A stretch of 64,000 nucleotides of DNA from Thermoanaerobaculia bacterium (GTDB taxonomy: Bacteria > Acidobacteriota > Thermoanaerobaculia > Multivoradales > Multivoraceae). Shown piece after piece: positions 2,559 through 36,735 of the stretch. The translations under genes were made by a program, and so were the position numbers. The stretch is from NCBI GenBank assembly GCA_965214805.1, contig OZ243982.1:2915253-2979252 (forward strand), given 5' to 3'. Under the pieces are notes generated by a model. The model was not told the DNA's origin and did no database searches. It was given only the letters and a program-made list of their open reading frames with translations. Numbering within the stretch: position 1 is the stretch's first letter; each line of letters starts with the position of its first letter.

Positions 2559-2597
2559 GGCCAGAGCGAACGCCTGCGTCAGCGACCTTGCGGAACG

Positions 2598-3788: not shown

Positions 3789-3798
3789 GTCTTGGGAA

Positions 3799-4380: not shown

Positions 4381-4423
4381 GGGAAGGTAGTGTAACCGCT
4401 TGTGCGGAACTTCACGTCCGCGG

Positions 4424-4762
4424 CTATTCAGGTTGTGCGAAGACGAATGTCGCCGGACACGAGCTTGGGAGAAGCAGATCGCGGGCCTGCGCCAGCTCGC
4501 AGGATTGTCGATTGAGCCTGGACAGAAGTACTGCGCCTTCGGGCACGATCGTCTTGTTGCTCTTCATCGAACTACCAAGGTCCGTGGCCGGCTCGTTTCC
4601 GGCATCGTACGCCGGGAAACTGTAGTGCTCGTAGATGCGCTCGGGCTGGGCGCCAGGTGATAGGATGACACGGTGATGATTCGCCAGATCGCTTGGCGTG
4701 TAGGTCGACCACCCAATGGGGCTCGTCCTGGACGATGCGCAGGTGGTCGGCGCGGATGTCAA
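4424..4762 (-). pseudogene. hsdS: type I R-M specificity subunit HsdS, N-terminal ~85 aa fragment
   Basis: PIGWSTYTPSDLA...RIYEHYSFPAYDAGNEPATDLGSSMKSNKTIVPEGAVLLSRLN matches the first target-recognition domain of HsdS (..HYSIPAFD....G..IKS.K..V....VLLSKLNP). Resemblance ends abruptly after SRLN. Confidence 0.6.
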
Positions 4763-5199
4763 CGGGCGACGTCAGGGGCGTCGTTCCTCCGTTGCAGTTG
4801 ATCCCGCAGGTATCTGGCCTCCCGGAGGAAGCCCGGAACGCCCTCGAAGACCGCCTGTGCCTTGGCTCCGTCGTAGGTGTGACTGATCGTGCCGCGGAGC
4901 TTCCGGTACTCCTTCCAGGCGGATAGCTCGGACTGCACCAGTCCGCGCCGGGAAGCTGCGCGCATGGTGTCGGCGAAGCTCATTTCGTCCAGCAGGGCGG
5001 GATTCTCGGAGACTTGTTCGAGATGGCGCTTGATCGTCTTGAACGACAATTGGTAGGTGAACTTGAAGGCATGGATTGTGGCGGCCCTGAGGTGCAGCTT
5101 GAGAGCGGGGTCGCGCGACGCCAGGTCCGAGCCGTGGTACTCCAGCGCTTCCTCCAACTGCGCGATCGCATCATCGAGCGGCGTCAGGTCAAGTGTCAT
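4759..5199 (-). CDS. HEPN-domain protein, nucleotidyltransferase substrate-binding (HI0074) family
   Basis: 146 aa with the typical HI0074 layout (LDDAIAQLEEALEY...HAFKFTYQLSFKTIKRHLE...) and an Rx4H motif (RGTISH). Confidence 0.8.
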   Translation of the reverse strand: MTLDLTPLDDAIAQLEEALEYHGSDLASRDPALKLHLRAATIHAFKFTYQLSFKTIKRHLEQVSENPALLDEMSFADTMRAASRRGLVQSELSAWKEYRKLRGTISHTYDGAKAQAVFEGVPGFLREARYLRDQLQRRNDAPDVAR

Positions 5200-5689
5200 T
5201 AGCCATGCCCACGCACTGGCAGGCGACGCTGAGCGGCCCCGCGTTCCTCGGCGGTGACGTCGATGGAGTGGCTTGCTCCCATGCCTCCCCGCTCATGGTC
5301 TGGTAGAGGCCGACGGCGTCATCCATGAAGTCCGGCACCAACGCGAGGCAGGCGGCCGCCTTCTGACCTTCAAGGTCGTGCGAGGTGTTGACACGGACGT
5401 TGACGTAGCGAAGCCAGCGTTCCAGCGGCCTGGCGAACAGTTGGTTCTCGTGGGCCAGCCTGAAGACGAGCTTCGGACTGTTCGGCGTCTCGGGAATGCC
5501 AAGATCTTCGTTCAGATACCGCTTGAGCACCTTCCAGAGGCAGTCGTAGCAGGTCCCGAAGCGCCGGATGACGGATTCGGCGATGCCCTCCCGATCGAGA
5601 GCGGAGAGCGCCGGATTGCCCTGCCGGTGGTTCTCGTTCTGCGCCTCGAGACGCTTCAGGGAGGACCGGAAATTGCTGTAGTCAATCAT
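5189..5689 (-). CDS. HEPN-domain protein, HI0074 family (second paralogue)
   Basis: From the internal ATG (5689): MIDYSNFRSSLKRLEAQNENH...RRFGTCYDCLWKVLKRYL...RVNTSH (Rx4H). It overlaps the downstream HEPN gene by 11 nt. The track ORF start at 5800 is probably too far upstream. Confidence 0.7.
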   Translation of the reverse strand: MIDYSNFRSSLKRLEAQNENHRQGNPALSALDREGIAESVIRRFGTCYDCLWKVLKRYLNEDLGIPETPNSPKLVFRLAHENQLFARPLERWLRYVNVRVNTSHDLEGQKAAACLALVPDFMDDAVGLYQTMSGEAWEQATPSTSPPRNAGPLSVACQCVGMANDT

Positions 5690-5861
5690 CAGTCGATCAT
5701 CGTTCCGTTCACGAGACAGGAATCGGCTGGACGTGCGGCCCGGCTCGATCTCCCGGTACTCCAGCAGGGTCAGGAGGCGGACGATATCAAGGATGCGCAC
5801 CGGACGCTCCGCGCCATGGCGATGTTGGACGCGTACAGGATCGTCTTGACTCCCCGGCTCA

Positions 5862-6297
5862 TCAGGGAGGCGACAGCCTGGTTCCGCGGCGCCTGCCGCG
5901 ACCGCTGCGTTCGTCCCTGACGCCGGGCAAGTCGAAGCCCAGCGCCGTCAGGTTCTCGGCGATGGCGGCGTGGAGCCGCGCAGCTTCGGCCTGCTGCGCC
6001 TGCAACTCGGCGACGAGCCGATTCATCTTGTCCTCGAACGGCTCGCCGTCGTCCTCCGGCGGCGGAGCGCCGACGTACCGGCCGGGGGTCAGCACGTGGC
6101 CGTGCCGGCGTATCTCGTCGATGGACGCGCTCTTTCAGAAGCCGGGCTCGTCTTCACAGGCCGCTACACGGTAGCCGCCGAGCCAGGCGTGATAGGCGGC
6201 TGCGATCCGGGCGATGTCCTCTTCCGTCAGTTCACGATGGGTGCGGTCGACCATGCGGCCGAGCTTGCGGACCCCGATCGGCCCGTCACCGGCCATG
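5862..6297 (-). pseudogene. hsdM: type I R-M methyltransferase HsdM, C-terminal ~130 aa fragment with an in-frame TGA
   Basis: Manual translation gives [91 protein letters not shown]. This is the conserved HsdM tail. A TAG lies just upstream of the homologous part, and no catalytic NPPF region is present. Confidence 0.7.
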
Positions 6298-6638
6298 GCC
6301 TACAGGCAGCCGGCGGTACCCAGGTTCTCTCTCCGAGGCGGTTTCGACTATCTTGAGCACGGGCGGCGTGACCTCTCCCGGCTTTCGACCGGGTGCTGGT
6401 TCAACACCCAAGAGGATACGCCGCCTGATCCAGTTCGCCTGATGCGCCACTTCCGGCAGTAGCTCGAGCCGGTCCGCAGGGTGCCGATTTCCCCTTCTTC
6501 GACATCGTGAATACCGCCTCCTCCAAGGGGGCAGTGTCCACGAACCGGGACAACCCCGTTCACGTCTGAGCGCTGGTTCCGCCAACCTTGAAACATGGTA
6601 CCGTACCCACGCAGCGCTGGCTTCGAGGACTACCAAAG

Positions 6639-6971
6639 ATGATCTGGGAAACGATCGCGTCGTTGAGCGCCGCCGCATCGGCGGCAATCGCCTTCCTCGT
6701 GTGGCGGCAGAAACAGCAAGACCAACAGTATAAACAAGCCGCCAGGGTAGCGACTCTTCGTTTGCTCATATTGCAGTCCGATCTCCAGCGCATACGAAGG
6801 CTCGTTGCGAGCGAGAGATTCGAGGGATTCCATATCGACGCCCTTCTTGAAGGCAACATGCTGGGCACGCAGCAGACGCTGGTCGACGTGCGGACGTTCT
6901 TGCCGGAACTCATACCTGAACTCCGCGGAAAGACGGAGGAACAACATGTTCAAAGAGAGAAGATCACGTAG
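6639..6971 (+). CDS. hypothetical small membrane protein (one N-terminal TM helix plus a helical tail)
   Basis: MIWETIASLSAAASAAIAFLVWRQKQQDQQYKQ... from ATG 6639 within ORF 6588..6971. Local GC is visibly lower (~55%) than the flanks. Confidence 0.45.
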   Translation: MIWETIASLSAAASAAIAFLVWRQKQQDQQYKQAARVATLRLLILQSDLQRIRRLVASERFEGFHIDALLEGNMLGTQQTLVDVRTFLPELIPELRGKTEEQHVQREKIT

Positions 6972-7437
6972 AATTCGCGGTCATGTGGCGGCAGTTCTCA
7001 ATTCTCGGCAGTTGGCGCTGAACGTCGGGTCGTCGCACCATGTGGAAGTCGGCATGCAGTTCGACGTCGTGCATGCGCGCAACCTGGAACTCAAGGATCC
7101 GATCTCGGATGAGTTTCTTGGCAAGCTGGAACTACCCAAGAAGCGCGTGAGAATATCCGAGGTTGCAGAGAAATTCTGCATTGCCAGCACACTGGCCCGG
7201 AAAGTCAATGTGGGGGGACGCGGACCGGGTTGGGATTTCGCGAACATCTATGCTCCTCCGAAGTGGGAAATTCAGTACGATACGCTCAAGAAAAGCAAGT
7301 CCTCCTTTGAAGAGATCGACGAATCGGAGAGCGTCGTCAAGGTTGGCGATCCGGTTGTGGAGGTGGTCACATCGGATACGGCCGAGTCGATGGAGTTCAT
7401 CGGCCAGACGGCATCTGGAGAGGCCCACGTCTCGTGA
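6946..7437 (+). CDS. hypothetical protein, 163 aa
   Basis: ATG 6946 is preceded by GGAGGA at a 5-nt spacing. It overlaps the upstream gene by 26 nt. The protein is MFKERRSRRIRGHVAAVLNSRQLALNVGSSHHVEVGMQFDVVH...VKVGDPVVEV, with no family recognised. It lies in the lower-GC segment. Confidence 0.5.
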   Translation: MFKERRSRRIRGHVAAVLNSRQLALNVGSSHHVEVGMQFDVVHARNLELKDPISDEFLGKLELPKKRVRISEVAEKFCIASTLARKVNVGGRGPGWDFANIYAPPKWEIQYDTLKKSKSSFEEIDESESVVKVGDPVVEVVTSDTAESMEFIGQTASGEAHVS

Positions 7438-7466
7438 CGCGGCGCTGGCAGCCACACGGGCCGAGT

Positions 7467-7518
7467 CGATCTGCTGGCTCGCGTTCGTGTGGCCGAGGTT
7501 CGAACCCGGCAGCGATCG
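7467..7518 (+). other. tRNA-like fragment (T-arm plus acceptor-like stem), possible island att scar
   Basis: CCGAG-GTTCGAA-CCCGG (7493-7509) resembles a T-arm (4/5 bp). It is followed by CAGCGAT, which pairs with ATC(T)GCTG at 7469-7476. It is too short to be a functional tRNA. Confidence 0.25.
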
Positions 7519-7655
7519 ACGGAGACGCGGTCCCGACGCTGGCGGCGCGCACCTTGTCGGGGCCAGCTCGAACTCGTTCGCAGGGAGGCCCGGAGCCTGT
7601 CCGTGGCGGTCTCGGGTGGGCGTGTGATCGATGGGTTCTCCGATGTCGGCGGGGC

Positions 7656-9146
<1,491 letters not shown>

Positions 9147-9149
9147 GGA

Positions 9150-10055
9150 TCAGCCTGACCGGGCGTTCCAGAGAACGCCGTCGGCGAGCAGATCGGAGAT
9201 CAGGCGGGCGATGTCGCCGGCGGCTGCGCTGCCGACCTGGAGCACGTCCTCGTGGTCGACGGGTCCCTCCGCGAGACCGACGCCCATGTTCGTGACCAGG
9301 GAGAAGCCGAGCACGCGCAGCCCCATGTGCCGGGCGGCGATCACTTCCAGAACCGTCGACATGCCGACCAGGTCGACGCCGAGCGCCTGGTAGGCGCGGA
9401 TCTCGGCCGGCGTTTCGTACGAGGGCCCGAGGAGGCCCAGGTAGACCCCTTCGTCCACGCGAATCCCGGCAGCGTGGCCGAGTTCGACGAATCGGCGGCG
9501 GAGGGCCGGATCGTAGGCGCCGGCCATGTCCGGAAACCGGGGCCCCCAGCTTGCCGGATGACGGCCGCGGAGGGGGTTGAGGCCGGTCAGGTTCACGTGA
9601 TCCGAGAGTGCGGCGATCGATCCCGGCGGCAGGTCGGTCCGCAGCGAGCCGGCGGCGTTCGTGATCACGAGCGAAGCGGCGCCGAGGAGGGCCGCGAGGC
9701 GCACCAGGTACACGATCTGCCCTGCCGTGTACCCCTGGTAGGCGTGGAGCCGGCCTCGGCAGCAGAGCACGAACCGGCCGTCGGGCGTTCTGGTCACCTC
9801 GATGGTCGCCGCGTGGCCTTCGATCGCCTCGACGTCGAACGGCAGCACGTCGTCGAACGGCCAGGGGCCGGCTGCCGGCGGGCCGAGGTCGAGGCTCAGG
9901 CCGGAACCGGTGACCAGGAGAGCGTCGGGCCGCGGCCGTCCGGCGTCGAGCCAGCGTCTCCGGCTTGCCTCGAGCTCGACGGCGAGACCTGAGTGCGACC
10001 CTGTATCCGTGTGCGACCCTTCCGTGTGCGACGCTGTATCCTTGCGGAGATTCAC
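9150..10055 (-). CDS. purine nucleoside phosphorylase (PunA/PNP type)
   Basis: LLVTGSGLS...RLHAYQGY...ITNAAGSL...GPSYETPAE...VGMSTVLEVIAA motifs. No start codon lies near the conserved N-terminus, so GTG 10055 is proposed; the start is uncertain. Confidence 0.85.
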   Translation of the reverse strand: MNLRKDTASHTEGSHTDTGSHSGLAVELEASRRRWLDAGRPRPDALLVTGSGLSLDLGPPAAGPWPFDDVLPFDVEAIEGHAATIEVTRTPDGRFVLCCRGRLHAYQGYTAGQIVYLVRLAALLGAASLVITNAAGSLRTDLPPGSIAALSDHVNLTGLNPLRGRHPASWGPRFPDMAGAYDPALRRRFVELGHAAGIRVDEGVYLGLLGPSYETPAEIRAYQALGVDLVGMSTVLEVIAARHMGLRVLGFSLVTNMGVGLAEGPVDHEDVLQVGSAAAGDIARLISDLLADGVLWNARSG

Positions 10056-10140
10056 GGTTCCGATTCCCGGGACAGTTAGGAGTGCGGGGACGATACACGA
10101 CCGGTCCGCGGCGTTGCGGGCGGCGCGCGAGGTGATCCAC

Positions 10141-10689
10141 ATGGCGGGGAACGGACAGCCCCGGGAGTTGATCTCCCGGGAAACGCTGCAGCGGCGGGTC
10201 GCCGAGCTCGCCGCCGAGATAGACCGCGACTATCGGGACAGCGAGGACCTGCTCTGCGTGGGTGTGCTCAAGGGGTCCGTCTTCTTCTTCTCCGATCTGT
10301 TGCAGCGCCTGTCGCGGCCCGTGATGGTCGACTTCTTTCAGACGTCGAGCTATCGGGGTGAGACCACGTCGCCCGGCGAGGTGCGGATCCGTCGCGACCT
10401 GGACCATTCGCTGGCCGGGCGGGACGTGCTGCTGATCGAGGACATCGTCGACACCGGATACACGATGCGGACGATTATGGCGCTGATGGGTTTTCGCGGC
10501 GCTCGTTCGGTGCGGCTCTGCGTCCTGCTCGACAAGGCGTGCAAGCGGGAGACGGCAGTGCAGATCCACTACCGCGGCTTCGAGCTCGACGACGTCTTCG
10601 CGGTCGGCTACGGCCTCGACTACAACGACCGTTACCGGAACCTGCCCTACGTCGGCATGCTGAACGAATCGGCCCTGGAAGCGGAATAG
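10141..10689 (+). CDS. hpt: hypoxanthine phosphoribosyltransferase
   Basis: From ATG 10141: LLCVGVLKGSVFFFSDL and VLLIEDIVDTGYTM (PRPP-binding loop), then YGLDY..RYRNLPY. Confidence 0.9.
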   Translation: MAGNGQPRELISRETLQRRVAELAAEIDRDYRDSEDLLCVGVLKGSVFFFSDLLQRLSRPVMVDFFQTSSYRGETTSPGEVRIRRDLDHSLAGRDVLLIEDIVDTGYTMRTIMALMGFRGARSVRLCVLLDKACKRETAVQIHYRGFELDDVFAVGYGLDYNDRYRNLPYVGMLNESALEAE

Positions 10690-10788
10690 CCAACGCGGCC
10701 CCGGCAGCCCAGGCAGCTCCCGAGACCGCCCCGGGCCGCTTCTGCGTACAGCCCTCTGCGGACAGCTCTGCGGATAGCCTCGCGTGCC

Positions 10789-12009
10789 GTGGGCTTCGTC
10801 TGGCATGTTGCGCTGAGGTACTTCCGCTCGACCCGGGCGGATGCCCACATCCGTGTTCTTTCGTCGCTCACTGCCGGCGGTCTGGCCGTGGGCACGGCGG
10901 CCCTGATCCTGGCCCTGGCGGCGCTCTCGGGCTTCCAGCACCATCTGCTGGAGGACCTCGTGCGGCACCGGCCCGCCTTGCAGGTGGAACTGGCAGCTGG
11001 AGCGGAATCCGCGAGCGGCGCGGCCGGGTCGGCCGCTTCGCTGGTCGACCGGGTAACGGCCGTGGACGGCGTCGCGGCGGTCCAGGAGCTGCTCTACGCC
11101 CGCGGCTGGCTGGTCGACCGGACGGGTGTGGCGGCGGTCGACGTCGTGGGCTACGAGAAGGCGCTGCCAGCATGGATTCCGGCGGCGGGCGGCGCGGCCC
11201 CGGGTCTGGCTGCGGCCCCCGGTCTGATCGTGCCGCTTTCCATTGCCCTGCGGATGGGGCTGGCGGTGGGCGGTTCGGCGAGGGTGGTGTCGCCCCGGTC
11301 CGGATTGACGCCTGTAGGGCCCAGGCCCCGCATGCGGACGCTGCCGGTGGCGGCGGTCTACGACTCCGGCCGCGCGGAGCACGAGCAGCTGCCGGTGCTG
11401 CTGCCCCTGGTGCAGGCGGCCGCGCTCTTTGCAGGCGGTGACCGGCGGCTCGACCTGACCCTTGCCCCGGGCGCCGATCCGGAAGCGGTCGCCGCCGACC
11501 TGCGTGCGGCGATGGACGCGGGCGAAGGCACGGTGACGACCTGGCGGCAGGCCAACCGGGCGTTGCTGTTTGTCCTGCGGCTGGAGAAGGGCCTGGTGTT
11601 CTCGGCGGTGGCGATGATTGTCGCGGTGGCGGCGTTCGCACTGCTCGCGGCGCTGTCCCTGGTGCTGTCCAGCAAGCGTTCCGAGGTCGGCGTGCTGGCG
11701 GCCATGGGAGCGCCGCCGGCCCGTCTGCGGCGGCTCTTTCTGGTGCTGGGCGCGTTGCTTTCGATTGGCGGCGCGGGCGTCGGCGGTGCGCTGGGCGCCG
11801 GCGCGGCGGCTCTGATGGACCGCTTTCGTGTCCTTTCGCTGCCGCCTGACGTCTACCACGTCGACTACGTGCCGTTCCTGGTCCGGGGCTGGGACGTGCT
11901 CGTCGTGCTGGTGTCGACGGTCGTGTTCACGGGCGCCGCCTCGCTGCTGAGCGCGCGCAAGGCGAGCCGGCTGAACCCGGTGGAGGCGATGCGGAGCGTC
12001 CGCACGTGA
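10789..12009 (+). CDS. LolC/LolE-family (FtsX-like) ABC transporter permease
   Basis: 406 aa. N-terminal ALRYFRS...SSLTAGGLAVGTAALILALA, a large periplasmic loop and a C-terminal FtsX-like TM bundle. It overlaps lolD by 4 nt. Confidence 0.85.
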   Translation: MGFVWHVALRYFRSTRADAHIRVLSSLTAGGLAVGTAALILALAALSGFQHHLLEDLVRHRPALQVELAAGAESASGAAGSAASLVDRVTAVDGVAAVQELLYARGWLVDRTGVAAVDVVGYEKALPAWIPAAGGAAPGLAAAPGLIVPLSIALRMGLAVGGSARVVSPRSGLTPVGPRPRMRTLPVAAVYDSGRAEHEQLPVLLPLVQAAALFAGGDRRLDLTLAPGADPEAVAADLRAAMDAGEGTVTTWRQANRALLFVLRLEKGLVFSAVAMIVAVAAFALLAALSLVLSSKRSEVGVLAAMGAPPARLRRLFLVLGALLSIGGAGVGGALGAGAAALMDRFRVLSLPPDVYHVDYVPFLVRGWDVLVVLVSTVVFTGAASLLSARKASRLNPVEAMRSVRT

Positions 12010-12698
12010 TCTTGGTTTCCGGAGTGACCAAGGCGTACCGGGACGGCGAGGTTCGGCGCGAGGTGCTGCGCGGCGTCGATCTCGAGCTTGGCCGCGGCGA
12101 CACGGCGGCCATCGTCGGGCCTTCGGGTTCGGGGAAGTCGACCCTGCTGAACATTCTCGGGGCGCTCGACACTCCCGACACGGGCACCGTGCGCATGGAC
12201 GGGGTCGACGTCTCGGCCCGCAGGCCGGCGGCCCTGGCCGGGTTCCGCAACCGCTCCATCGGCTTCGTGTTCCAGTTTCACCAGTTGTTGCCGGACTTCA
12301 CCGCGCTCGAGAACGTGATCATGCCGGGACGGATCGCGGGCCGGTCCACCGCGTCGTTGCGGGCTCGCGGGCTGGAGCTGCTGGGCCAGGTCGGACTCGG
12401 GGAGCGCGCCGCCGATTTTCCCCAGCAGCTGTCCGGGGGTGAGCGTCAGCGGGTCGCGATCTGCCGCGCGCTGATGCTCGAACCGCCGGTGCTGTTAGCC
12501 GACGAACCGACCGGAAATCTGGACGCGGCCAGCGGAGCGCAGGTGCTGGAGTTGCTGAACGGCCTGCAGCGGCGGCGTCGCACGACGATGGTGCTGGTGA
12601 CGCACAACCCCGAGGTCGCCAGCCGTTGCGGCAGGGTGCTGCGGCTCGAGGGGGGGCGGCTGACGCCGGACCACCCGCCGATCCGGCAGCGTCGATAG
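12006..12698 (+). CDS. lolD: ABC transporter ATP-binding protein, LolD-like
   Basis: Walker A GPSGSGKST, signature LSGGERQR, Walker B LLADEPTGNLD. Confidence 0.85.
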   Translation: MILVSGVTKAYRDGEVRREVLRGVDLELGRGDTAAIVGPSGSGKSTLLNILGALDTPDTGTVRMDGVDVSARRPAALAGFRNRSIGFVFQFHQLLPDFTALENVIMPGRIAGRSTASLRARGLELLGQVGLGERAADFPQQLSGGERQRVAICRALMLEPPVLLADEPTGNLDAASGAQVLELLNGLQRRRRTTMVLVTHNPEVASRCGRVLRLEGGRLTPDHPPIRQRR

Positions 12699-28177: not shown

Positions 28178-29449
28178 GTGGCAGTCACGCCCTACGACAT
28201 TCTGAACCGGATGCGTCAGGGCCGGACGCTGACCCGGGATGAGGTGTGGTCCGTGGTCGCGGGAGCGACCGACGGGAGCTGGACGGACGTGCACCTTGCC
28301 GCTTTCCTCATGGCCGCCGCGATGCGGGGTCTCGATCCCGACGAGACGCGGGAGCTGACCCTGGCGATGCTGGAGTCCGGCGAGCGTTGGGCGCTTGCCG
28401 CGGAGTTCGGCCCGCTTGTCGACAAGCACTCGACCGGCGGAGTCGGCGACACCGTCAGCCTGATCGCGCTGCCCGTGCTTGCCTCGTGCGGCGTGCCCAC
28501 GGCCAAGCTCACCGGCCGCTCGCTCGGACACAGCGGCGGCACGGCGGACAAGCTGGAGAGCATCCCCGGCGTGTGGCTGGAGCTGGACCGGGACAGGGCC
28601 CTAGGCCTTCTCGAACGCTTCGGCATGGCGATCGGCGTGGCCACCGCGCGCATCGCTCCGGCCGACAGGCGTCTGTACGGCCTGAGGGATCGGACCTCGA
28701 CCGTGAGCTCCGTTCCGCTCGTCGTCGGCAGCATCCTCTCGAAGAAGCTCGCTCTGGGCGCGTCCGGAATCGTGTTCGACGTCAAGACCGGCAGCGGCGG
28801 CTTCTTTTCCGACCTCGAGGAGACCCGCGCGCTCGCGTCCGGCCTGGTCTCGATCAGTGCCGCCTGCGGCACGCCGGCGGACTGTGTCCTGAGCGACATG
28901 AGTCAGCCGCTGGGCCGCTGGGTCGGCCACACCGCAGAAGTGCGGGAGGCCCTGGACTTCCTGGACGGGGACGGCGACCCGCGGCTGTCCGAAGTGGTGA
29001 CCGCGGTGTGCCGGAAGGCTGCGCGCCTGATCGGCACGGAGTTGGCGCCGAAGGACATCGAGGCCGTGATCGCAACCGGCGCCGCCCGCGAGAAGCTGAT
29101 CGACTGGGCCGAGGCCCAGGGCGCTGAAGCGGGCTGGACGGACGGTCTGGACCTGGCGCCGGTCGAGGCGGTGGTCACGGCCTCCAGGTCGGGATACGTC
29201 GAGTCCGTCGACTGCAGGCGGATCGGCAGTGCCTTCGCCGAGGCCTGCCGGCCCGACCGCGATCCGAACAGGATCGACCACGCCGTCGCCCTCCGCTATG
29301 ACGCCCGCCTCGGCCAGAAGGTCGAACGCGGCCAGGAACTCGCCCGGCTGTACGTGCGGCGTGACCCGGAACGGCTGCAAGGCGAGGTCGCGGCGGCGCT
29401 CGTCATCGGCGAGCAGATCGAGGCGCCGCCGGCCGTGGCGAAGCAGTGA
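28178..29449 (+). CDS. deoA: thymidine/pyrimidine-nucleoside phosphorylase
   Basis: HLAAFLMAAAMRG...DKHSTGGVGD...SGRSLGHSGGTADKLE motifs. Confidence 0.9.
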   Translation: MAVTPYDILNRMRQGRTLTRDEVWSVVAGATDGSWTDVHLAAFLMAAAMRGLDPDETRELTLAMLESGERWALAAEFGPLVDKHSTGGVGDTVSLIALPVLASCGVPTAKLTGRSLGHSGGTADKLESIPGVWLELDRDRALGLLERFGMAIGVATARIAPADRRLYGLRDRTSTVSSVPLVVGSILSKKLALGASGIVFDVKTGSGGFFSDLEETRALASGLVSISAACGTPADCVLSDMSQPLGRWVGHTAEVREALDFLDGDGDPRLSEVVTAVCRKAARLIGTELAPKDIEAVIATGAAREKLIDWAEAQGAEAGWTDGLDLAPVEAVVTASRSGYVESVDCRRIGSAFAEACRPDRDPNRIDHAVALRYDARLGQKVERGQELARLYVRRDPERLQGEVAAALVIGEQIEAPPAVAKQ

Positions 29450-29611
29450 GGGCCAGAGACTGCCGGCGACCGTCGTCGTGCTACAGTCAGTCACTCCAAT
29501 GGTTTGACCGGCTCAGGCCCGGCCCGTGTGCCCCGGGCATTGACCCGGACAACGACCAACGGTGCGAACTGTCCTTCAGTCCTTGAAGCTGCCTGATCAG
29601 GAACGACGTCA

Positions 29612-29627
29612 CCCCCCCCCCCCCCCC
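29612..29627 (+). repeat. homopolymeric C16 tract
   Basis: Counted directly: 16 consecutive C inside the ~530-bp gap between deoA and the propeller gene. Confidence 0.95.
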
Positions 29628-29983
29628 GGTCACGGACGAGCCTGGCTGAACTTGTCGTCCATCCAGGCGCGGGCGAGCGGGGAGTCACCCACTCCGAGCG
29701 TCGGCGGGGTGAATGTCGGGGCCTGCACCGACTGCCACCGGCGTTCGTTTGGGCTGATCCACGACTCAGGTGGCGCTCCGCGTCGCTCGCTTCGTTGCAG
29801 GCACACGCCGACCACAGCTTTCTCGTTGGCCCTGACGGACGTCTGTTGCTCTCGACCAGCGGCCTGGTGAGCCGTCAGCACGTCGAGAAGCACCTCTTGG
29901 GCATAGGATCGAGTACGCGGCCTCGTCCGTCACACGCAGGGTCCTGGCCGTGTCGAATCTGGACGACGAAGTGGAGGCGCTTC

Positions 29984-31135
29984 ATGCCGGCTCGCAGCAT
30001 CGGATGGCTCGCCGAGCGTTGCAGACTGGCAGCAGGCCGGTTGTTTTCCATTGGACACTCATCTCGTTTCGGTCGTGTCCGCCGTCCGTGGACGGCAGGA
30101 GTGCTCGCAGTACTGCTTGGTGCAGGGTCTGCGGCTGCTTCAGACGAGATCCATGAGGGGACGTTCGAGGCCGAACGGATTTTCGAGACACTCGCGCTGA
30201 ACGGTGCGCATCGTCTGATATCCAGGGGCGACGGGTTCATGGTCCTGGACCGCATGAACCACCGTCTTCTGGAGCTGAGTGCCTCCGGTGATGTCGTACG
30301 CCAGTACGGTCGCGTGGATCAGGCGCCGGGTGAGATGCAGTTTCCGTTTGGCTACGCGATCGGCCCTTCTGGCACGATTCGAGTCGTGACCTCCTACGGT
30401 CTGTTCCTCGTGCACTCCTTTTCTCCGGACGGAGAGCTGCTGAAGACCATTCAGCAGGGAGCGACACTTGAGGAGGCGGAGATCTACAGGAGTTACTCGA
30501 TCGCGGCCGACTCTCGCGACCGGTTCTACCTGAACCAGCCGCGGCTGGGGTCAGTCCTCACGGTCTACTCGGCCGAAGGCGAGAAGCAGGCCGCAGTTGG
30601 CGATCTGCTGGTCCCGGAGGATGTTTTCCCTGATTGCGACCGGCACATCCGCTGTCGAGATCGCCGCTTTGCCACACGGATCAACCGGGTGGTCATGACC
30701 TCGGGCCAGGCAGACTCGATCGTGATGGCTTTCACGGCTGCTCCGATCGTACGCAAGTACTCGGCAAGCGGAGGCCTGGAGTTCGAGACACGGCTTCAGG
30801 GCGCCCTGGTCGACGAACTCGTCGAACTCGCCATGCAGGAACCCGAGGCCTGGGAGCCCCACGTCGCCGAGAGCCTGCAGACGGATGGCATCAGTGCACT
30901 TGCCATGCTCCAGGACGTGGCCGTGGAACCTCGGACAGGGTTGATCTACTGCCTGGTCGGAAGTCGTCAGTTGCATGTGCTTTCGCGAACCGGAGAGCTC
31001 GTGGCCACGCTTGCACAGGTCGAGGGAAGGCCGGGCGTTTCTTCTCTTTCGGTATCGGACGGCACGGCTTATCTGACGACGTTCCTGGCGACCTATCGCG
31101 CGACGCTGGACCGCTCGATCCTGGAGAACATCTGA
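29984..31135 (+). CDS. secreted beta-propeller protein (NHL-repeat-like)
   Basis: ATG 29984 with GGAGG 6 nt upstream. N-terminal signal-like VRRPWTAGVLAVLLGAGSAAASDE. Repeated blade-like units (GEMQFPFGYAIGPSGTIRVV.., FYLNQPRLGSVLTVYSAEGE.., GLIYCLVGSRQLHVLSRTGE..). GC is lower than the flanks. Confidence 0.65.
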   Translation: MPARSIGWLAERCRLAAGRLFSIGHSSRFGRVRRPWTAGVLAVLLGAGSAAASDEIHEGTFEAERIFETLALNGAHRLISRGDGFMVLDRMNHRLLELSASGDVVRQYGRVDQAPGEMQFPFGYAIGPSGTIRVVTSYGLFLVHSFSPDGELLKTIQQGATLEEAEIYRSYSIAADSRDRFYLNQPRLGSVLTVYSAEGEKQAAVGDLLVPEDVFPDCDRHIRCRDRRFATRINRVVMTSGQADSIVMAFTAAPIVRKYSASGGLEFETRLQGALVDELVELAMQEPEAWEPHVAESLQTDGISALAMLQDVAVEPRTGLIYCLVGSRQLHVLSRTGELVATLAQVEGRPGVSSLSVSDGTAYLTTFLATYRATLDRSILENI

Positions 31136-31284
31136 TGGTTGTCATGTTCATGAACGGCGTCGCCTCTGTACCGATTGCGTCGGGTGCTGATTGCGTCGCG
31201 ACGATCGGCGTGGCGTGCGGCGGTCAGAACTACTGCTGCGTGGCGGGTTCCGACTGGTGCATCGCCCGGGATTGCAGTCGTTGA
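31135..31284 (+). CDS. 49-aa six-cysteine peptide (candidate secreted/modified peptide)
   Basis: MVVMFMNGVASVPIASGADCVATIGVACGGQNYCCVAGSDWCIARDCSR. The ATG overlaps the propeller stop (TGATG), and GGAGA lies ~8 nt upstream. GC3 is about 75%. In the track it appears only as the tail of the artefactual ORF 30634..31284. Confidence 0.4.
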   Translation: MVVMFMNGVASVPIASGADCVATIGVACGGQNYCCVAGSDWCIARDCSR

Positions 31285-31313
31285 TCGGTCTTGCGCCCGT
31301 GGGGCCTTGAACG

Positions 31314-32609
31314 GTGGGTTCGTTGTGGTCGATCGCCCTGAAGCGATGCCGCCTGACCGTGCGCAGTGGCTGGTTTCTGGGGGCCTGGGCCGTTGGCGGC
31401 GTGATGGCCGTTGCCACGGTCTCGGTCTCCTGGCTGAACTACCAGGAACGGGTTTCGTTGTTCGAGGCCAGAGAGCTCGCTCGGGCGTTGGCGGTCGACG
31501 GGGCCCAGACCTGGCGCGGTGTGGAGCTGGGTGTGGAGCGACCGCCTGCTCCCTTGAGCCTGCTGAGTCGGGGCGTGGGGGAGGAACTGGGATCGAGCGC
31601 GACGGTCCGGGGGCGCTTCGGTCCGGTGGCGTACTCCAGGCGCGACGCGCCGGCGACGGACGAGGCCCGGCGGGGGAATCTCGATTTCTCGTGGGCGCTC
31701 GCTCTGGTCGTCGGGTTCACGTGCGTGTTCTCGGGTCACGCCGTGATCAACGGGGAGAAGCAGAAGGGCACTCTCAAGCAGCAGCTTGCGCGAGGCCTGC
31801 CGCGATCGAGCCTGTTGCTCGGTGAGTTCCTGGGAGGCCTGCTGACGGTCGCCGTGCCATGCGCGGTTCTCTTTCTCGGCTTCTCGACCTGGGCGGTTCT
31901 GGCCGGACCGGGACTCGCCGGAGAGGACTGGCCACGTGTCGGGCTCTGGTTCGTGCTGGTCGTCCTGTACGGGTGTTTCTGGCTGGCCGCTTCGCTTGCG
32001 TTGTCCGTCGTGTGCCGGGAGCCGGCCACGTCCCTGGTCGCGGGGGTGCTGGCGTGGGCAGTGTCTGCGGCGCTCTATCCGCAGTTGGCGGGGTGGGCTG
32101 CTGCCCGGGCGGCGCCGCCGGTGCCGGGGCAGTACGAACACCTGGCGGATACGAGGCCCGGTCTTTCCCCCGGAAGGGCAGGGGCCGAGCGGACATCGGA
32201 CGACGACCGCGAGCGGTCCCTGGCGCGCCGGAACGTGCGGTCGGCCGAGTATCGGTTGTACCGGCGGTTTGCAGCGCTTCTGCCGGTGACGGCGATGCTC
32301 GATGCCGGTCAGGTCCTGGCGGGCACCTCGCCCGCCGATCATGAGTGGTTTCTCCGTCACGTGGACGACGCGGAGCGGTCCTTCCGGGCGTGGCAGGCAG
32401 AGAAGCTCGAGCGCTACCCGGAACGGGAGTTCCGAGTGGACAGCCGCGTTCCGCTCGACATCGAAGGCCTGCCCGACCCGGTGTGGCAGGACGCCTCCTT
32501 GACCTGGTCGCTTCGTCAGGCGGGGCTGCCGTTAGCCGCACTCCTGTTCGGCGCCACCGGGCTCGTGCTCGTCGCGGGTGTCGGGTTCGAGAGGCTGGAC
32601 GTCCGCTGA
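31314..32609 (+). CDS. ABC-2-type transporter permease (large, DUF3526-like architecture)
   Basis: 431 aa. N-terminal TM, then GEKQKGTLKQQLARGLPRSSLLLGEFLGG (ABC-2 signature region), multiple TMs, a soluble segment and a terminal TM. Confidence 0.75.
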   Translation: MGSLWSIALKRCRLTVRSGWFLGAWAVGGVMAVATVSVSWLNYQERVSLFEARELARALAVDGAQTWRGVELGVERPPAPLSLLSRGVGEELGSSATVRGRFGPVAYSRRDAPATDEARRGNLDFSWALALVVGFTCVFSGHAVINGEKQKGTLKQQLARGLPRSSLLLGEFLGGLLTVAVPCAVLFLGFSTWAVLAGPGLAGEDWPRVGLWFVLVVLYGCFWLAASLALSVVCREPATSLVAGVLAWAVSAALYPQLAGWAAARAAPPVPGQYEHLADTRPGLSPGRAGAERTSDDDRERSLARRNVRSAEYRLYRRFAALLPVTAMLDAGQVLAGTSPADHEWFLRHVDDAERSFRAWQAEKLERYPEREFRVDSRVPLDIEGLPDPVWQDASLTWSLRQAGLPLAALLFGATGLVLVAGVGFERLDVR

Positions 32610-32624
32610 GCGGGCGGGGAATCC

Positions 32625-34082
32625 GTGCTCGGTCTTCTGATCCGTTGGGAGCTGGTACGGCACCTCCGGAACTACCGGCTCCTGGTGCTCCTCGTGGGCG
32701 GTCCGGTGCTGATGGCGGCCGCGGCATTGTCCCACGCCGCGGCCGTTCACGACCAGCGCGCCGCCAGACCCGGCCTGTCTCGGGCAGCGGAGAGTGCAAC
32801 GAACCTCGAACAGGCCGTCGTGCTGCGCCCGCCTTCACGGCTGGGGTTCCTCGGTGCGGCGCCTCGGGAACAGTGGGGAGAAGCCGCGGTGGTGCGCCCT
32901 CACCTCCAGGACGTCATGGAGGCGGACGTCTCGGAGCGCTCGTACCTCTTCGCGGCGGTACCTCTCGACTGGACGGCGGTCGTCATCTTCTTCTACAGCC
33001 TGATGGCGGTCGCCGTCAGCTACGACGCGGTGGCTGGAGAGCGGGCCGCCGGGACGCTGCGGGTCCTGGCCAGCCGACCGATCGGGCGGATGCCCCTGCT
33101 TCTGGGCAAGATCCTGGGCTGCTTCTTCGTGGTGGCCGGCTCCCTGGTCCTGGGCGCCCTGACCGGGACCCTGGTGGCGGTCGCGGTCTCGGGACAGGGC
33201 CTGGTCCTTTCCGACGCTGTCCTGTTGGCGCTCGCGGTGGCGCAGATCCTTGCCTTCCTGTTGGTCAACGTGCTGATCGGGATGGCCGCTTCGGTCACGG
33301 CGTCGACGCCGGAGCAGGCCCTGCAGCGAGGCCTGGGAGCGTGGACGGTTCTTGCTCTCGTGGTGCCGGGCCTCGTGGTCGTGACGGGCGCGGCGCTCTA
33401 CCCGGCGCCCTCCGAACTGGCCTTCCAGCGGAATCTCGCCATTCATGAACAGGGTTACAGAATGCGATTGGGCGTATCTTCCATGTCGGTCACCGAGATC
33501 GTGAGGACTCCGGGGATCTCCGTCGCCGAGAAGCACCGTCGTGTCGAGGCTCTGGAAGCGGAGATTCAGGCCGATCAGGAGGCCGCGCTCGCCGAGATGG
33601 AACGGGGCTACGCCGAGCTGCGGCGGGACCACCTTCTGCGGTCGGGGCTCCAGGAAGAATGGGCGGCTCGCTGGGGCGCCCTGTCGCCCCACACTCTTCT
33701 GCGCCGTTCCCTGAACCGGCTTGCGCTCGCCGGCTCGAGCGGACGCCGGGAGTTCCGGCGCCAGGTCGGGCAGTTCGAGCCGCTCTTCACCGCGTTCGTC
33801 CTGGAGCAGCGGCAGGTACACCGGGAAGATGCTCTGGAGAGCGGCCCCAGGACATACACGACCGATGACGACGGCGAGAAGTACGAACTCCGTGGTCTGT
33901 CCCGGATCGACTATTCGGAAGTACCGATTGCGGCTGACGACTTTCCCCGATTCACCTGGCGGCCTCCGGGCGCTGCCGCGCTTGCCGCTCGGACGCTTCC
34001 CGACCACTTGTGGATGCTTCTGTTCGTGGTAGCGGCGGGCGCCTTCACGCTCTGGCGGTTCCACGGATACGACTGCCGATGA
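32625..34082 (+). CDS. ABC-2-type transporter permease, second paralogue
   Basis: 485 aa. AGERAAGTLRVLASRPIGRMPLLLGKILG, a TM bundle, a ~200-aa soluble segment and a C-terminal TM. Confidence 0.75.
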   Translation: MLGLLIRWELVRHLRNYRLLVLLVGGPVLMAAAALSHAAAVHDQRAARPGLSRAAESATNLEQAVVLRPPSRLGFLGAAPREQWGEAAVVRPHLQDVMEADVSERSYLFAAVPLDWTAVVIFFYSLMAVAVSYDAVAGERAAGTLRVLASRPIGRMPLLLGKILGCFFVVAGSLVLGALTGTLVAVAVSGQGLVLSDAVLLALAVAQILAFLLVNVLIGMAASVTASTPEQALQRGLGAWTVLALVVPGLVVVTGAALYPAPSELAFQRNLAIHEQGYRMRLGVSSMSVTEIVRTPGISVAEKHRRVEALEAEIQADQEAALAEMERGYAELRRDHLLRSGLQEEWAARWGALSPHTLLRRSLNRLALAGSSGRREFRRQVGQFEPLFTAFVLEQRQVHREDALESGPRTYTTDDDGEKYELRGLSRIDYSEVPIAADDFPRFTWRPPGAAALAARTLPDHLWMLLFVVAAGAFTLWRFHGYDCR

Positions 34083-35626
34083 CGGGTGCCGGCAGAGGGA
34101 TTCTCGGAGCGGGACAGAGCGCCGCGATCCTGGGCGGCGTCGCCGTCGTCCTGTTGCTGGGCGCAGCCGAGGAATCACGCTCCCAGCCAGTCCCCAATGC
34201 GCCTGGTGCGCCAATCCGCAATGCGCAGGAACGGCGGCTGGAGTTCGCGGAGGCTCGCATCGGTCACGAGGACGCCGAGCGGCGGTTGGCGCGTGCGAGG
34301 GAGTTGCACGAGAACGGCCTCATCTCGGAAGCCGACCTCGACACGCACGAAACGAGCCTGCGTCTGGCGGAGGTCCAGATGAGGCGGGCCTGGACGAGGC
34401 TGGCCCTCGCCGATCCGGAGATCATCCTCCGCTCGGCGAAGAAGTTCCAGGGTGAAGACGGCGGCGTGCGGGTGGAACTCGATCTGATCGCCCGCTGGAC
34501 CCTGGGGCTCGAAACGAACGCTGCGAAGGTTGCTGACAGCGGCGTCGGCCAACCGCTGGACCTGCCGGTGATCGATGGCGTCTCGAACGTTGTCATCAGT
34601 CTGAAGACGACGCGGGGCTACCAGGAAGGGGTTCTGATCGATCCGACGATCGTCTCGGTGCCCTACGAGCAGCGCGTGCCGCTGATGCCGTTCGACGAGC
34701 CCGTGCCGGTGACCTTCGGTCTGCTGCTGCCCGACGTTCAGGAGGTGCTGGTCGAGTTGCGCTACAACGACGAGGTCCATCTTCGCCAGGTGCTGCTGGG
34801 CAAGGGCGTCGATGCCGGCGGAGGGCTGGTGATGCGCTCCGAACAGGTCACGCTCGATGTCGAACTGGGCCAGGAAGCCGCCTACGATCTCAGCCTGGAG
34901 CGGTTCGACGACCGGAGCGCCATCTACAGCGTGACAGCCGAGGGTCTGCCGCCGGAGATCTCCTTCAAGGCTTCGGATCCCGATTCCGGGGCGTCGTTCA
35001 GTCAGGTGTTCTTCCCGGAGCAGGTCATGGACCGGAAGCTGCGGCTGGCGTTGACGATGCCCGGTCGGCCCACCGAGGCGGTGCAGCCGGGACGGGCGAT
35101 CCGGTTCGCGGTCCGGCTCGATCCGGAAGACGCCGCGGGCGGCGCACGGGGATCCACGCCGGCGGGACGGCTGGAGCTGGCGGTCGTTCCCCGCGGAGTG
35201 GCGGAGCTCGAGGTGGAGGCCGCGAACCTGTACCACGAGGTGGCGCGCGGTGATTCCGTTCGTCTCGACGTCCGGGTCGTCAACTCGGGCAGCGGAAACC
35301 TGGAACAGGTCGAACTCAGGGTGGACGCGCCGTTCGAATGGTCCACGGAAGTGGCCCCGCAGCTCTTCCCGGCCCTCGAACCGGGGACGGAGGAAACGGC
35401 CGTGGTCGTTCTGTTTCCGCCGCCGGACATCGTCGTGGGCGACTACGAGGCGTCGATTCAGGCCGGAAGCCTGTCGGGCGACCAGCTCGTGGAGAGCGTC
35501 CCGAAGACCTTCCGCGTGCATGTTGCCGCGACCTCGAATCCGTGGCTCGTCGCCGTGCTCGCGACCGCTGTGGTCGGGGCAGTGGCCGGCGTGACCTGGG
35601 CTGGATTGAGACTGAGCAGACGCTGA
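34079..35626 (+). CDS. membrane-anchored extracytoplasmic protein with a NEW3/CARDB-like Ig-fold domain
   Basis: The ATG overlaps the permease stop (ATGA). N-terminal hydrophobic segment and a coiled-coil-like stretch. VVNSGSGNLEQVELRVDAPFEWS...LEPGTEETAVVVLFPPPDIVVGDYEASIQA is typical of NEW3/CARDB domains. C-terminal TM is NPWLVAVLATAVVGAVAGV. Confidence 0.6.
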   Translation: MTGAGRGILGAGQSAAILGGVAVVLLLGAAEESRSQPVPNAPGAPIRNAQERRLEFAEARIGHEDAERRLARARELHENGLISEADLDTHETSLRLAEVQMRRAWTRLALADPEIILRSAKKFQGEDGGVRVELDLIARWTLGLETNAAKVADSGVGQPLDLPVIDGVSNVVISLKTTRGYQEGVLIDPTIVSVPYEQRVPLMPFDEPVPVTFGLLLPDVQEVLVELRYNDEVHLRQVLLGKGVDAGGGLVMRSEQVTLDVELGQEAAYDLSLERFDDRSAIYSVTAEGLPPEISFKASDPDSGASFSQVFFPEQVMDRKLRLALTMPGRPTEAVQPGRAIRFAVRLDPEDAAGGARGSTPAGRLELAVVPRGVAELEVEAANLYHEVARGDSVRLDVRVVNSGSGNLEQVELRVDAPFEWSTEVAPQLFPALEPGTEETAVVVLFPPPDIVVGDYEASIQAGSLSGDQLVESVPKTFRVHVAATSNPWLVAVLATAVVGAVAGVTWAGLRLSRR

Positions 35627-35715
35627 ACGGCAATGGTCGGGAGCGTCGGCTGAACCAGGATCCGGAGAGAGCAAGGCAGGTGGAGAAGTTGAAGCAGGAA
35701 ACGCAGAGCGAGGCG

Positions 35716-36426
35716 ATGATCGAGGCGGTCGACCTTCGCATGGTGTTCGGGGACGGCACGAAGGCGCTCGACGGGGTGAGCTTCGAGGTTCTCCGAGGCG
35801 AGATCTTCGGACTTCTCGGCCCGAACGGCGCTGGCAAGACGACGACGATCAACCTGTTTCTCGACCTCATTCAGCCGACCGGCGGCAAGGCTCTGATCAA
35901 GGGAATCGAGGTCGCCCGCGAACCGCGCCGGGCGAAGAGCTGCGTGGAGCTCATCCCCGAGAATGTTGCGCTCTATCCCACCCTGACGGCGATGGAGAAC
36001 GTGGAGTTCCTTGGCGCCGTCGGCCTCGGGCGGGGGCCGGAACGCGACCGCATCCGGCAGGCGCTGTTGCGGGTCGGCCTGCCGGAGGAGGTCCACGACC
36101 GGCGCGTGGCCACGTTCTCCAAGGGAATGCGGCAGAAGACCGGTCTTGCCGTCGCCCTCCTCCGGCAGGCCCCGGTGGTGCTGCTGGACGAGCCGACGTC
36201 GGGCCTGGATCCCGCTGCCGCCGCCGACCTGGTCGAGCTGCTCGATCAGCTTCGGAGCGACGGGGCGGCGATCCTCCTGTGTACGCACGACATCTTCCGG
36301 GCGCAGCAGCTCTGCGACCGAATCGGCATCATGCGCCAGGGTAGGATGCAGTCCATCCTGGATCGCAAGGTACTCGACGAGAGCGATCTGGAGCAGGTCT
36401 ATCTGGAGACGATGGTCCAGGTCTGA
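35716..36426 (+). CDS. ABC transporter ATP-binding protein
   Basis: Walker A GPNGAGKTT, signature FSKGMRQK, Walker B VLLDEPTSGLD, H-loop CTHD. Confidence 0.9.
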   Translation: MIEAVDLRMVFGDGTKALDGVSFEVLRGEIFGLLGPNGAGKTTTINLFLDLIQPTGGKALIKGIEVAREPRRAKSCVELIPENVALYPTLTAMENVEFLGAVGLGRGPERDRIRQALLRVGLPEEVHDRRVATFSKGMRQKTGLAVALLRQAPVVLLDEPTSGLDPAAAADLVELLDQLRSDGAAILLCTHDIFRAQQLCDRIGIMRQGRMQSILDRKVLDESDLEQVYLETMVQV

Positions 36427-36528
36427 ACCGACAGGCCCGCGGCCGAAGTCGAGCTGCATGCGAGCGGCGATGCATCACGTCCAACGTCGTTGCTCTTCGG
36501 TCGAGCATGGCCCCGGATGCGCTCCCTC

Positions 36529-36560
36529 ATCGTGCCTTGTTGGAATCGTGCCTTGTTGAC
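36529..36560 (+). repeat. 2 x 16-bp tandem repeat (ATCGTGCCTTGTTGGA / ATCGTGCCTTGTTGAC)
   Basis: Read directly. It lies in the 310-bp gap between the ABC ATPase and cinA. Confidence 0.9.
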
Positions 36561-36735
36561 ACGCACCCCGCCGCTCTCCCTGCGACCCGGACTTCTGCCG
36601 CGGCCTGCTGGATCGGAGCCGTTACGAATCCCGCCACTCCCGCGCCGTTCTGCTCCCGCCGGCCGCGCCGTTCCCGTTGTCGGCGACTGCGACCTGGCTG
36701 ATCCGTAGGGCGGTCATGTCGCTACACTGCGCCGC

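Follow-up and report, generated by a model that had tools for sequence, protein, structure and literature searches.

A 64,000-nucleotide stretch of the genome of a Thermoanaerobaculia bacterium (NCBI GenBank assembly GCA_965214805.1, contig OZ243982.1, positions 2,915,253 to 2,979,252), here called the window, contains a 49-codon open reading frame (ORF) at 31135-31284 whose product has six cysteines. We put the probability at about 0.72 that this ORF is an N-terminally truncated, probably non-functional copy of a gene for a secreted six-cysteine mini-protein, of a family whose members would be exported, oxidised and released by the route proposed below. The family peptides appear, from their sequences, to be a rare and apparently undescribed group of small secreted six-cysteine mini-proteins of the Thermoanaerobaculia (Acidobacteriota). 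The intact locus, or cassette, encodes in order a membrane-anchored thioredoxin-like (Trx-like) protein with a CxxC motif, an NHL-type beta-propeller, one to five of the peptides, two ATP-binding cassette type 2 (ABC-2) permeases, a NEW3 protein and an ATPase.

The six-cysteine peptide and its family

Locus L001, from a 4.2-Mb contig, is 96% identical to the window across the cassette and carries two tandem peptide genes. The features of the propeller-peptide region of the window are as follows.

29984-31135, + strand: six-bladed NHL-type beta-propeller gene, 383 aa; 96% identical to called protein P0002; start ATG at 29984
31123-31127, + strand: GGAGA, 7 nt before the ATG at 31135, inside the last propeller codons; also in L001, as propeller coding sequence
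31135-31284, + strand: truncated six-cysteine secreted-peptide gene, 49 codons; family profile E 1e-14 to 1e-15, and alignments
31155-31156, + strand: deletion junction between TTCATGAAC and GGCGTCGCC; the missing 364 nt are L001 7173-7536 (blastn and alignment)
31189-31281, + strand: mature-domain codons, DCVATIGVACGGQNYCCVAGSDWCIARDCSR; six Cys and GG retained, Arg at codon 31267-31269 for the cassette Trp

The ORF translates as MVVMFMNGVASVPIASGADCVATIGVACGGQNYCCVAGSDWCIARDCSR, with 49 codons before the stop. As the initial annotation had described, all six cysteines lie within the C-terminal 30 residues, with one CC pair among them. The ATG at 31135 shares 1 nt with the TGA of the propeller gene (31133-31135), as TGATG. 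The GC content of the peptide frame by codon position is 0.54/0.58/0.74, and a peak at the third position (GC3) is seen only in the proposed frame. The propeller gene, with 0.66/0.49/0.72, is close to the ORF at GC3, and the coding-like third-position bias claimed earlier is borne out. Two other statements needed correction. The ORF is not hidden inside a 216-aa out-of-frame artefact; the longer ORF, 30634-31284, shares the reading frame of the peptide and begins at an upstream TTG; only against the propeller is it out of frame. The word "unannotated" may be true of the source record, but not every gene caller missed the ORF: one has already called the 49-aa product as P0001.

The arrangement C-C-CC-C-C uninterrupted by a stop occurs once in the six-frame translation of the 64-kb window. 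Simulated windows (first-order Markov, dinucleotide frequencies preserved) are expected to hold 0.01 such patterns each, and the strict CGG...CC form appeared in 0 of 200 simulations.

Relatives of the peptide were reached through the propeller. A search with that protein gave six homologues of 44-96% identity, and the contigs of those homologues, together with five species-representative genomes labelled Thermoanaerobaculia, supplied loci for comparison. The framework of the family, C-x5-7-CGG-x3-CC-x6-C-x4-C near the C-terminus, accommodates the spacing in the window, C-x7-CGG-x3-CC-x6-C-x4-C. In L001 (two copies), L002, L003-5, L006-8, L009-10, L011-12, L015, L016 and L043-44, the stretch that separates the NHL propeller from permease 1 encodes a peptide with this framework; the only close syntenic loci without a peptide gene are L013 and L014. 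Conservation of the cysteine spacing in syntenic loci was the check proposed by the initial annotation, and it was found rather than the loss of pattern named as refuting. Since the framework is kept in these loci, the ORF is, as judged by this conservation, a genuine coding sequence of a conserved family.

The family was not visible to direct searches. The 49-aa peptide, used as a single query against a 5.8-billion-protein collection, returned only itself (P0001) because the word index misses short divergent relatives. Pfam and NCBIfam scans of the peptides gave no match even at E<=1, and an Rfam scan of 29300-31500 gave none. A family profile search retrieved 11 clusters among the 5.8 billion sequences, none of them with a Pfam domain on record, and an exhaustive hidden Markov model search retrieved 17 clusters among 1.84 billion representatives; no cluster of either search is named. 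The literature on knottins of bacteria, on mining for disulfide-rich peptides and on NVEALA/BF3164 propeller systems gave no description of the family.

The relatives carry plain signal sequences for the general secretory (Sec) pathway. In each of the 13 examined, the first 8 residues contain 1-4 Lys/Arg, followed by a 14-23-residue uncharged run and a small-x-small cleavage motif immediately before the first cysteine; the typical form is MKKK, a hydrophobic run and AxA. Two example pre-peptides are MKKKLTLFVAAVLTTVSLSVLPADA (signal) joined to GWCSSGDEICGGDGMCCFAGFGMCFAWDCSK (mature), and MKRRLVLWAAAVLTTVTLGVSTAQA (signal) joined to AFCITGTGWICGGVGMCCVAGETWCFVWECDY (mature). The leader-plus-core reading of the initial annotation is not supported by these relatives: all 13 have a canonical Sec signal and none has a leader of the type found in ribosomally synthesised peptides with post-translational modifications (RiPPs).

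The mature cysteine domain, of about 30 residues, directly follows the signal. The AlphaFold2 model of one member, P0020, has four short strands and a predicted local distance difference test score of ~80-84 in the mature part. Foldseek comparison of the peptide model with the PDB gave one meaningless match, as expected for a domain of ~30 residues, and a PDB sequence profile search with the family gave nothing at E<=10. The cysteines and the GG are invariant. The loops that separate the cysteines are hypervariable: aromatic and hydrophobic residues abound in them, and neither His nor Met is conserved. Most of the peptides are anionic. At the position two residues ahead of the last cysteine the window has Arg (CIARDC), where all other rows of the family alignment have Trp. 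Several distant members have Phe, Tyr or Ile at this position.

In the distant, lower-GC loci L040, L045 and L046 the order of propeller then peptide is kept, with 1-5 tandem peptides. L040 has a Trx-like gene, a propeller and then five tandem peptides. L045 has a Trx-like gene with CTAC, a propeller and one peptide, with no adjoining ABC genes. L046, which is cut upstream, has the end of a propeller gene, three peptides and then an ABC-2 permease. The tandem arrays consist of divergent genes (five at L040 7761-9100, three at L046 422-1097), and two of the L046 copies have eight cysteines in an expanded framework, CC-x4-CC-x7-CC-x6-C-x4-C. A separate system stands at L040 1-2000. It comprises a DUF5128-type propeller, a membrane protein of 181 aa and two secreted peptides (65 and 69 aa), in each of which one C-x6-C loop lies close to the C-terminus. 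From this, the association of propellers with small secreted cysteine peptides appears to be a wider theme.

The 364-nt deletion, the Trx-like partner and selection

The N-terminus of the window peptide differs from those of its relatives. It has no Lys/Arg, the longest stretch that contains no charged residue and no Asn, Gln, His or Pro measures 6 residues, and what is left of the signal is the c-region alone, SGA before D. Comparison with L001 accounts for this. By blastn, window 29935-31155 aligns with L001 5952-7172 and window 31155-36711 with L001 7537-13110. The 364 nt missing from the window hold all of L001 peptide gene 1, whose probable start MSNQKNG... stands behind a GGAAAGGGAAGGAAAG site, together with the ribosome-binding site of peptide gene 2, its start codon and its first 18 codons. 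Across the junction, sequence from just past the propeller stop now runs into the pre-peptide at its codon 19; besides its start, gene 2 has lost the n-region and most of the h-region. The window copy is thus without a Sec signal because the deletion removed it.

The origin of the present N-terminus can be read from the same alignment. MVVMFMN corresponds to a few codons after the propeller stop, which in L001 lie upstream of the likely start of peptide 1, and the rest, GVASVPIASGADC..., is the tail of the gene-2 signal peptide. In the relatives the peptide genes start 34-117 nt downstream of the propeller stop and have their own GGAGG-type sites. Therefore the overlap, the GGAGA and the "leader" of the window copy are products of the deletion. 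The GGAGA sequence and the 1-nt overlap do exist as the initial annotation had noted, but neither is a feature of the family; by the alignment with L001, the "leader" MVVMFMN... is a by-product and not a design feature. Likewise, the earlier observation that a Sec signal is missing was correct, but the conclusion drawn from it, that export would need the ABC system, is not supported, the relatives being of Sec type and the loss being due to the deletion.

A second gene of the cassette has also decayed in the window. Every relative locus with enough upstream sequence has a 296-359-aa gene before the propeller, overlapping it by 11-14 nt in L001, L002, L003, L009 and L011 and separated from it by a 19-nt gap in L006. 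Its product has an N-terminal membrane anchor. The first half gives a weak thioredoxin-fold signal, matching Redoxin/AhpC-TSA at E 0.01-0.3 in four members, with further weak matches to ResA (E 0.02) and to PDB 2m72, a 'thioredoxin-like protein' (E 0.0016). The second half has an invariant CxxC behind a hydrophobic strand (VVALPAALCAACGP) and two more invariant cysteines; the CxxC takes the forms CAAC, CEQC, CASC, CSAC and CTAC among the loci. The possibility that this gene is a second propeller paralogue was ruled out, as there is no BLASTP similarity and the protein is thioredoxin-like instead. What the window retains of it is the following.

29744-29994, + strand: Trx-like pseudogene remnant (tblastn with the L001 protein)

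Nothing remains of residues 1-104, and residues 105-171 are scattered across three frames and have suffered a 12-nt deletion. A further deletion, of 404 nt, has taken residues 172-306 including the CxxC, and the last 20 residues are at 29935-29994. As read from this alignment, the Trx-like gene of the window is a frameshifted, twice-deleted pseudogene. L013 and L014, which lack the peptide, also lack the Trx-like gene and keep the propeller and the ABC genes. The Trx-like and peptide genes are thus gained and lost together, which argues that they are functionally linked.

Substitution rates were compared between pairs of loci, as nonsynonymous (dN) and synonymous (dS) rates. Between the window and L001 the propeller gave dN 0.018, dS 0.104 and dN/dS 0.17, and the remainder of the peptide gave dN 0.17, dS 0.23-0.38 and dN/dS 0.44-0.77. 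The mature peptides of L003 and L016 gave dN 0.09, dS 0.34 and dN/dS 0.27, and those of L006 and L011 gave dN 0.37, dS 0.58 and dN/dS 0.63; the propeller dN/dS for the same two pairs was 0.16 and 0.21. Judged by these comparisons and the alignment, the family is codon-constrained at its Cys and Gly positions and variable in its loops. Ten of the 31 mature residues differ between the window and L001, no Cys or GG among them, and amino-acid change in the window peptide is about 10 times faster than in the neighbouring propeller. The fast change and the loss of the Trp fit a relaxation of constraint in the window copy, in a sample too small to separate this from fast loop evolution. A uniform pattern of conserved signal and variable mature part, as in conotoxins, was considered and does not apply; it holds for L006-L011 (dN 0.08 versus 0.37) and is reversed for L003-L016 (0.19 versus 0.09).

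Propeller, transporter genes and surroundings

The propeller and the transporter are intact in the window. The AlphaFold2 model of the propeller, built with six homologues, has six blades and a predicted template modelling score of 0.78. Its best Foldseek matches are the NHL domains of TRIM2, Thin and Brat (E ~1e-14), and a PDB profile search returned the NHL domains of Thin and TRIM71 (E 1e-23 to 1e-19); the gene has no Pfam match. The ORF listed at this place, a 446-aa ORF starting with TTG at 29795 (29795-31135), is a chimera of the pseudogene remnant and the propeller. An exact look-up of its product returned nothing because of this chimeric nature.

The genes downstream of the peptide are as follows.

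31314-32609, + strand: ABC-2 permease 1 (ABC2_membrane_2 and DUF3526); Pfam E 3.9e-23; syntenic in all close loci
32625-34082, + strand: ABC-2 permease 2 (ABC2_membrane_2 and DUF3526); Pfam E 1e-24; synteny
34079-35626, + strand: NEW3/NPCBM_assoc envelope protein; PF10633 E 5.6e-13; start taken from the L001 gene call
35680-36426, + strand: ABC ATPase, DrrA-like; PF00005 E 5.8e-30; TIGR01188 E 2.6e-60, below cutoff; start taken from the L001 gene call

The transporter is of ABC-2 type, with a separate ATPase and no peptidase domain. The NEW3 protein has a coiled-coil stretch, a C-terminal anchor and a weak likeness to membrane-fusion adaptors (RND_mfp E 1e-4, with 21 bits where the cutoff is 95). 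Its mechanically derived 538-aa ORF (34010-35626) probably starts in reality at 34079, with a 4-nt overlap with the permease stop as in L001. The ATPase also matches the lantibiotic-protection family TIGR03740 (E 7e-42, below cutoff).

The window has 68% GC and is rich in spurious ORFs. The flanks of the cassette are housekeeping-like, with purine/pyrimidine salvage genes (thymidine phosphorylase), lipid A genes, CinA and GuaA, as identified partly from reading translations. GC3 is lower in the propeller and peptide (29984-31284; 0.72-0.74) than in the transporter (0.81-0.87) and the flanking housekeeping genes (0.86-0.89), which hints at a different history for that part of the cassette. Between the thymidine phosphorylase gene and the propeller lies a decayed stretch with a C16 homopolymer at 29612-29627. 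In L001 the corresponding place is occupied by an insertion sequence with rve/HTH_Tnp_1 genes (L001 3298-4780); a transposase also adjoins the cassette in L003. The cassette sits at a rearrangement-prone spot, and its genomic neighbours vary between genomes.

L013 and L014 have two tandem ABC-2/NEW3/ATPase cassettes at 2456-12692, with a propeller before the second and neither a Trx-like gene nor a peptide. In this second cassette the NEW3 gene is a 45-residue remnant, and the ATPase is split in L013. It is an independent second case of partial decay.

In three lineages the cassette is preceded by genes for a BlaI-like repressor, a BlaR1-like M56 sensor-protease and a 211-215-aa helix-turn-helix (HTH) protein of sigma-70 region 4/LuxR type (L003 819-3372, L006 2207-4742, L016 4128-6669); they are absent from the window and L001. 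L009 has the HTH gene alone before the cassette, on a contig that begins 166 nt upstream of it. The BlaI/BlaR1(M56) pair and the HTH protein may regulate the cassette.

Proposed pathway, alternatives and known systems

In the pathway that we propose for intact members of the family, the pre-peptide would be exported by Sec and cut by signal peptidase after the AxA-type site directly before the first cysteine. The product of ~30 residues would be oxidised in the periplasm, where the dedicated Trx-like/propeller pair would introduce or shuffle three disulfides; within the pair, the propeller would hold the peptide and the CxxC domain would exchange disulfides with it. A compact, beta-rich, mostly anionic and aromatic-rich peptide would then be released, and the ABC-2/NEW3 machine would either expel it from the envelope or protect the producer. 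The product may act as a bacteriocin-like or a signalling peptide. We favour, with modest confidence, a bacteriocin-like effector, on the grounds that the copies are tandem and divergent and that an ABC-2 system is linked to them. As to the disulfide- or thioether-rich core suggested by the initial annotation, the presence of a CxxC thioredoxin-like gene wherever the genes upstream of a relative's peptide are visible makes disulfides plausible; thioethers are not supported, there being no thioether or RiPP enzymes nearby.

The copy in the window is most likely a decaying remnant of such a gene. A number of points weigh against this reading or against parts of the pathway. First, the six cysteines, the GG and the frame are kept, and dN/dS against L001 is below 1, though indistinguishable from 1 over 31-42 codons. 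Second, an ATG with GGAGA 7 nt upstream makes translation possible, and one gene caller accepts the ORF. Third, an assembly error might in principle account for the deletion, the window coming from a single 4.17-Mb contig. Fourth, the disulfides, secretion and activity of the family peptides are all predicted, and the propeller's putative role and the direction of ABC transport are proposed from gene linkage only. Finally, L045 has no ABC genes beside its Trx-like/propeller/peptide triad, so that the transporter may form a module with only loose linkage.

The first two of these points also support the alternative that survives best, namely that the window copy still functions, which we consider unlikely. 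It would be translated from the ATG at 31135 by coupling to the propeller gene, and exported either with its short, hydrophobic N-terminal part (MVVMFMNGVASVPIASGA; VVMFM..VASVPIASGA) as a weak signal or by the ABC-2 system; general Dsb enzymes of the periplasm would replace the Trx-like partner. The retained AG and AxA-like c-region (SGA before D) suit it, as does a dN/dS of 0.44-0.77 that is not clearly 1. Against it, one deletion in three would leave the frame open by chance. The n-region without Lys/Arg and the 6-residue run, against 14-23 in the relatives, speak against a working signal, and the loss of the Trp conserved in the cassette, the pseudogene state of the Trx-like partner and the tenfold faster amino-acid change than in the neighbouring gene speak against a working product.

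Improbable, in our estimate, is a different role for the family, in which the peptides would be periplasmic factors handling metals or thiols. The Trx-like protein would keep their cysteines reduced, as TlpA does for copper chaperones, and a NosY-like ABC-2 system would deliver a metal centre or sulfur. The ABC2_membrane_2 (PF12679) permeases point this way, PF12679 being the family that includes NosY of the NosDFY system, and so do the six invariant cysteines and the best matches of the Trx-like protein, which are TlpA/ResA-type reductases. However, the hypervariable aromatic and hydrophobic loops lack a conserved His or Met, arrays of 2-5 divergent copies suit effectors better than a cofactor chaperone, and no metalloenzyme target gene is linked.

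That the ORF encodes a RiPP-like precursor, with a 19-residue leader and a core that carries disulfides or thioethers and leaves through the neighbouring ABC transporter, is very improbable. A cysteine-rich C-terminal core beside an ABC system, in a copy without a Sec signal, invites this view of the window taken by itself. The relatives, however, carry ordinary Sec signals whose cleavage site is immediately ahead of the first cysteine, and the "leader" is a deletion product. Furthermore, no radical-SAM, LanB/C/M, YcaO or C39 peptidase domain was found in the cassette (genes scanned) or within ~10 kb, where the flanking genes, assigned partly by reading translations, resemble housekeeping genes; and the transporter, of ABC-2 type, has a separate ATPase. 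The idea of an open frame that arose by chance in GC-rich intergenic DNA, as might be supposed in a window of 68% GC with many spurious ORFs, is already refuted by the pattern expectation of 0.01 per window, the profile match at E ~1e-15 and the syntenic homologues.

With the relic reading, the annotation of the window changes in two places: the ORF becomes a truncated relic instead of a leader-core precursor, and the 446-aa ORF a pseudogene chimera. What the locus documents is a cassette whose peptide half has decayed while its transporter half was retained. Disulfide-rich knottin-like peptides of bacteria are scarcely documented.

Several known systems resemble the cassette in part. The C-C-CC-C-C order is that of knottins (inhibitor cystine-knot peptides), examples of which are spider toxins, framework VI/VII conotoxins and hevein-like Ac-AMP peptides. 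Like them, the family peptides measure ~30 residues and have a signal immediately ahead of the domain; their loops vary between fixed cysteines, the copies stand in tandem and diverge, and a small beta-sheet is predicted. It differs in having no Pfam knottin, PDB-chain or Foldseek match, a bacterial host and a dedicated Trx-like/NHL pair. Of the knot itself, in which disulfides I-IV, II-V and III-VI form and the third threads the ring, the sequence shows the cysteine order. According to the KNOTTIN database paper, bacterial knottins are without solved structures (PMC5753296).

A comparable export route, and a precedent for the one proposed here, is that of the E. coli heat-stable enterotoxin STII, which is exported by Sec, oxidised in the periplasm by DsbA and then passed to the MacAB-TolC ABC pump (PMC5985334). 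Both systems involve a small cysteine-rich Sec peptide, periplasmic disulfides (predicted here) and an ABC machine with a periplasmic partner. The cassette, however, has ABC-2 permease paralogues with DUF3526 and not MacB/FtsX, a NEW3 adaptor-like protein and its own oxidoreductase, and the family peptides have no sequence similarity to STII.

Third, lactococcin 972 is a Sec-dependent bacteriocin with ABC-transporter immunity, and the LanFEG proteins are ABC-2-type immunity transporters. The order of a small peptide gene with a signal followed by ABC genes is the same, and the cassette ATPase resembles lantibiotic-protection ATPases. The peptides here gave no match to the lactococcin 972 family, are mostly anionic and not cationic, and come from a diderm host; any antimicrobial role is putative.

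Finally, the pairing of a thioredoxin-fold redox module with a six-bladed NHL propeller recalls NHLRC2 and SOQ1. SOQ1 is reportedly membrane-anchored on the extracytoplasmic (lumenal) side, and the Trx-like protein of the cassette is likewise membrane-anchored. In NHLRC2/SOQ1, a second precedent for the proposed pathway, the Trx-like domain is fused to the NHL propeller and the two form one conserved cleft (PMC6107167). In the cassette the two are separate genes, whose 11-14-nt overlap suggests a complex, and the CxxC is in the second of two Trx-like halves and is not CC(I/V)NC. NHLRC2 was not among the PDB sequence matches at E<=10 with the Trx-like profile or at E<=1 with the propeller profile. 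A split NHLRC2 orthologue was considered for the pair, and neither the motif nor the PDB matches support it.

The general kind of system, a Sec-dependent disulfide-rich secreted peptide with an ABC partner, is thus already known; the dedicated split Trx-like/NHL pair and the peptide family appear undescribed. It is a tentative suggestion that Thermoanaerobaculia and some lower-GC bacteria possess an undescribed system in which the Trx-like/NHL pair would be a dedicated oxidative-folding machine for tandem Sec-exported knottin-like peptides, with ABC-2/NEW3 for release or self-protection and BlaI/BlaR1-type control in some loci. If so, it would be a bacterial counterpart of conotoxin-style arsenals, and would offer the first concrete substrate type for the widespread Trx-NHL architecture (NHLRC2, SOQ1). 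The trio of substrate, oxidoreductase and propeller would then be an easy system in which to study dedicated oxidative folding, and might hint at the targets of NHLRC2 and SOQ1.

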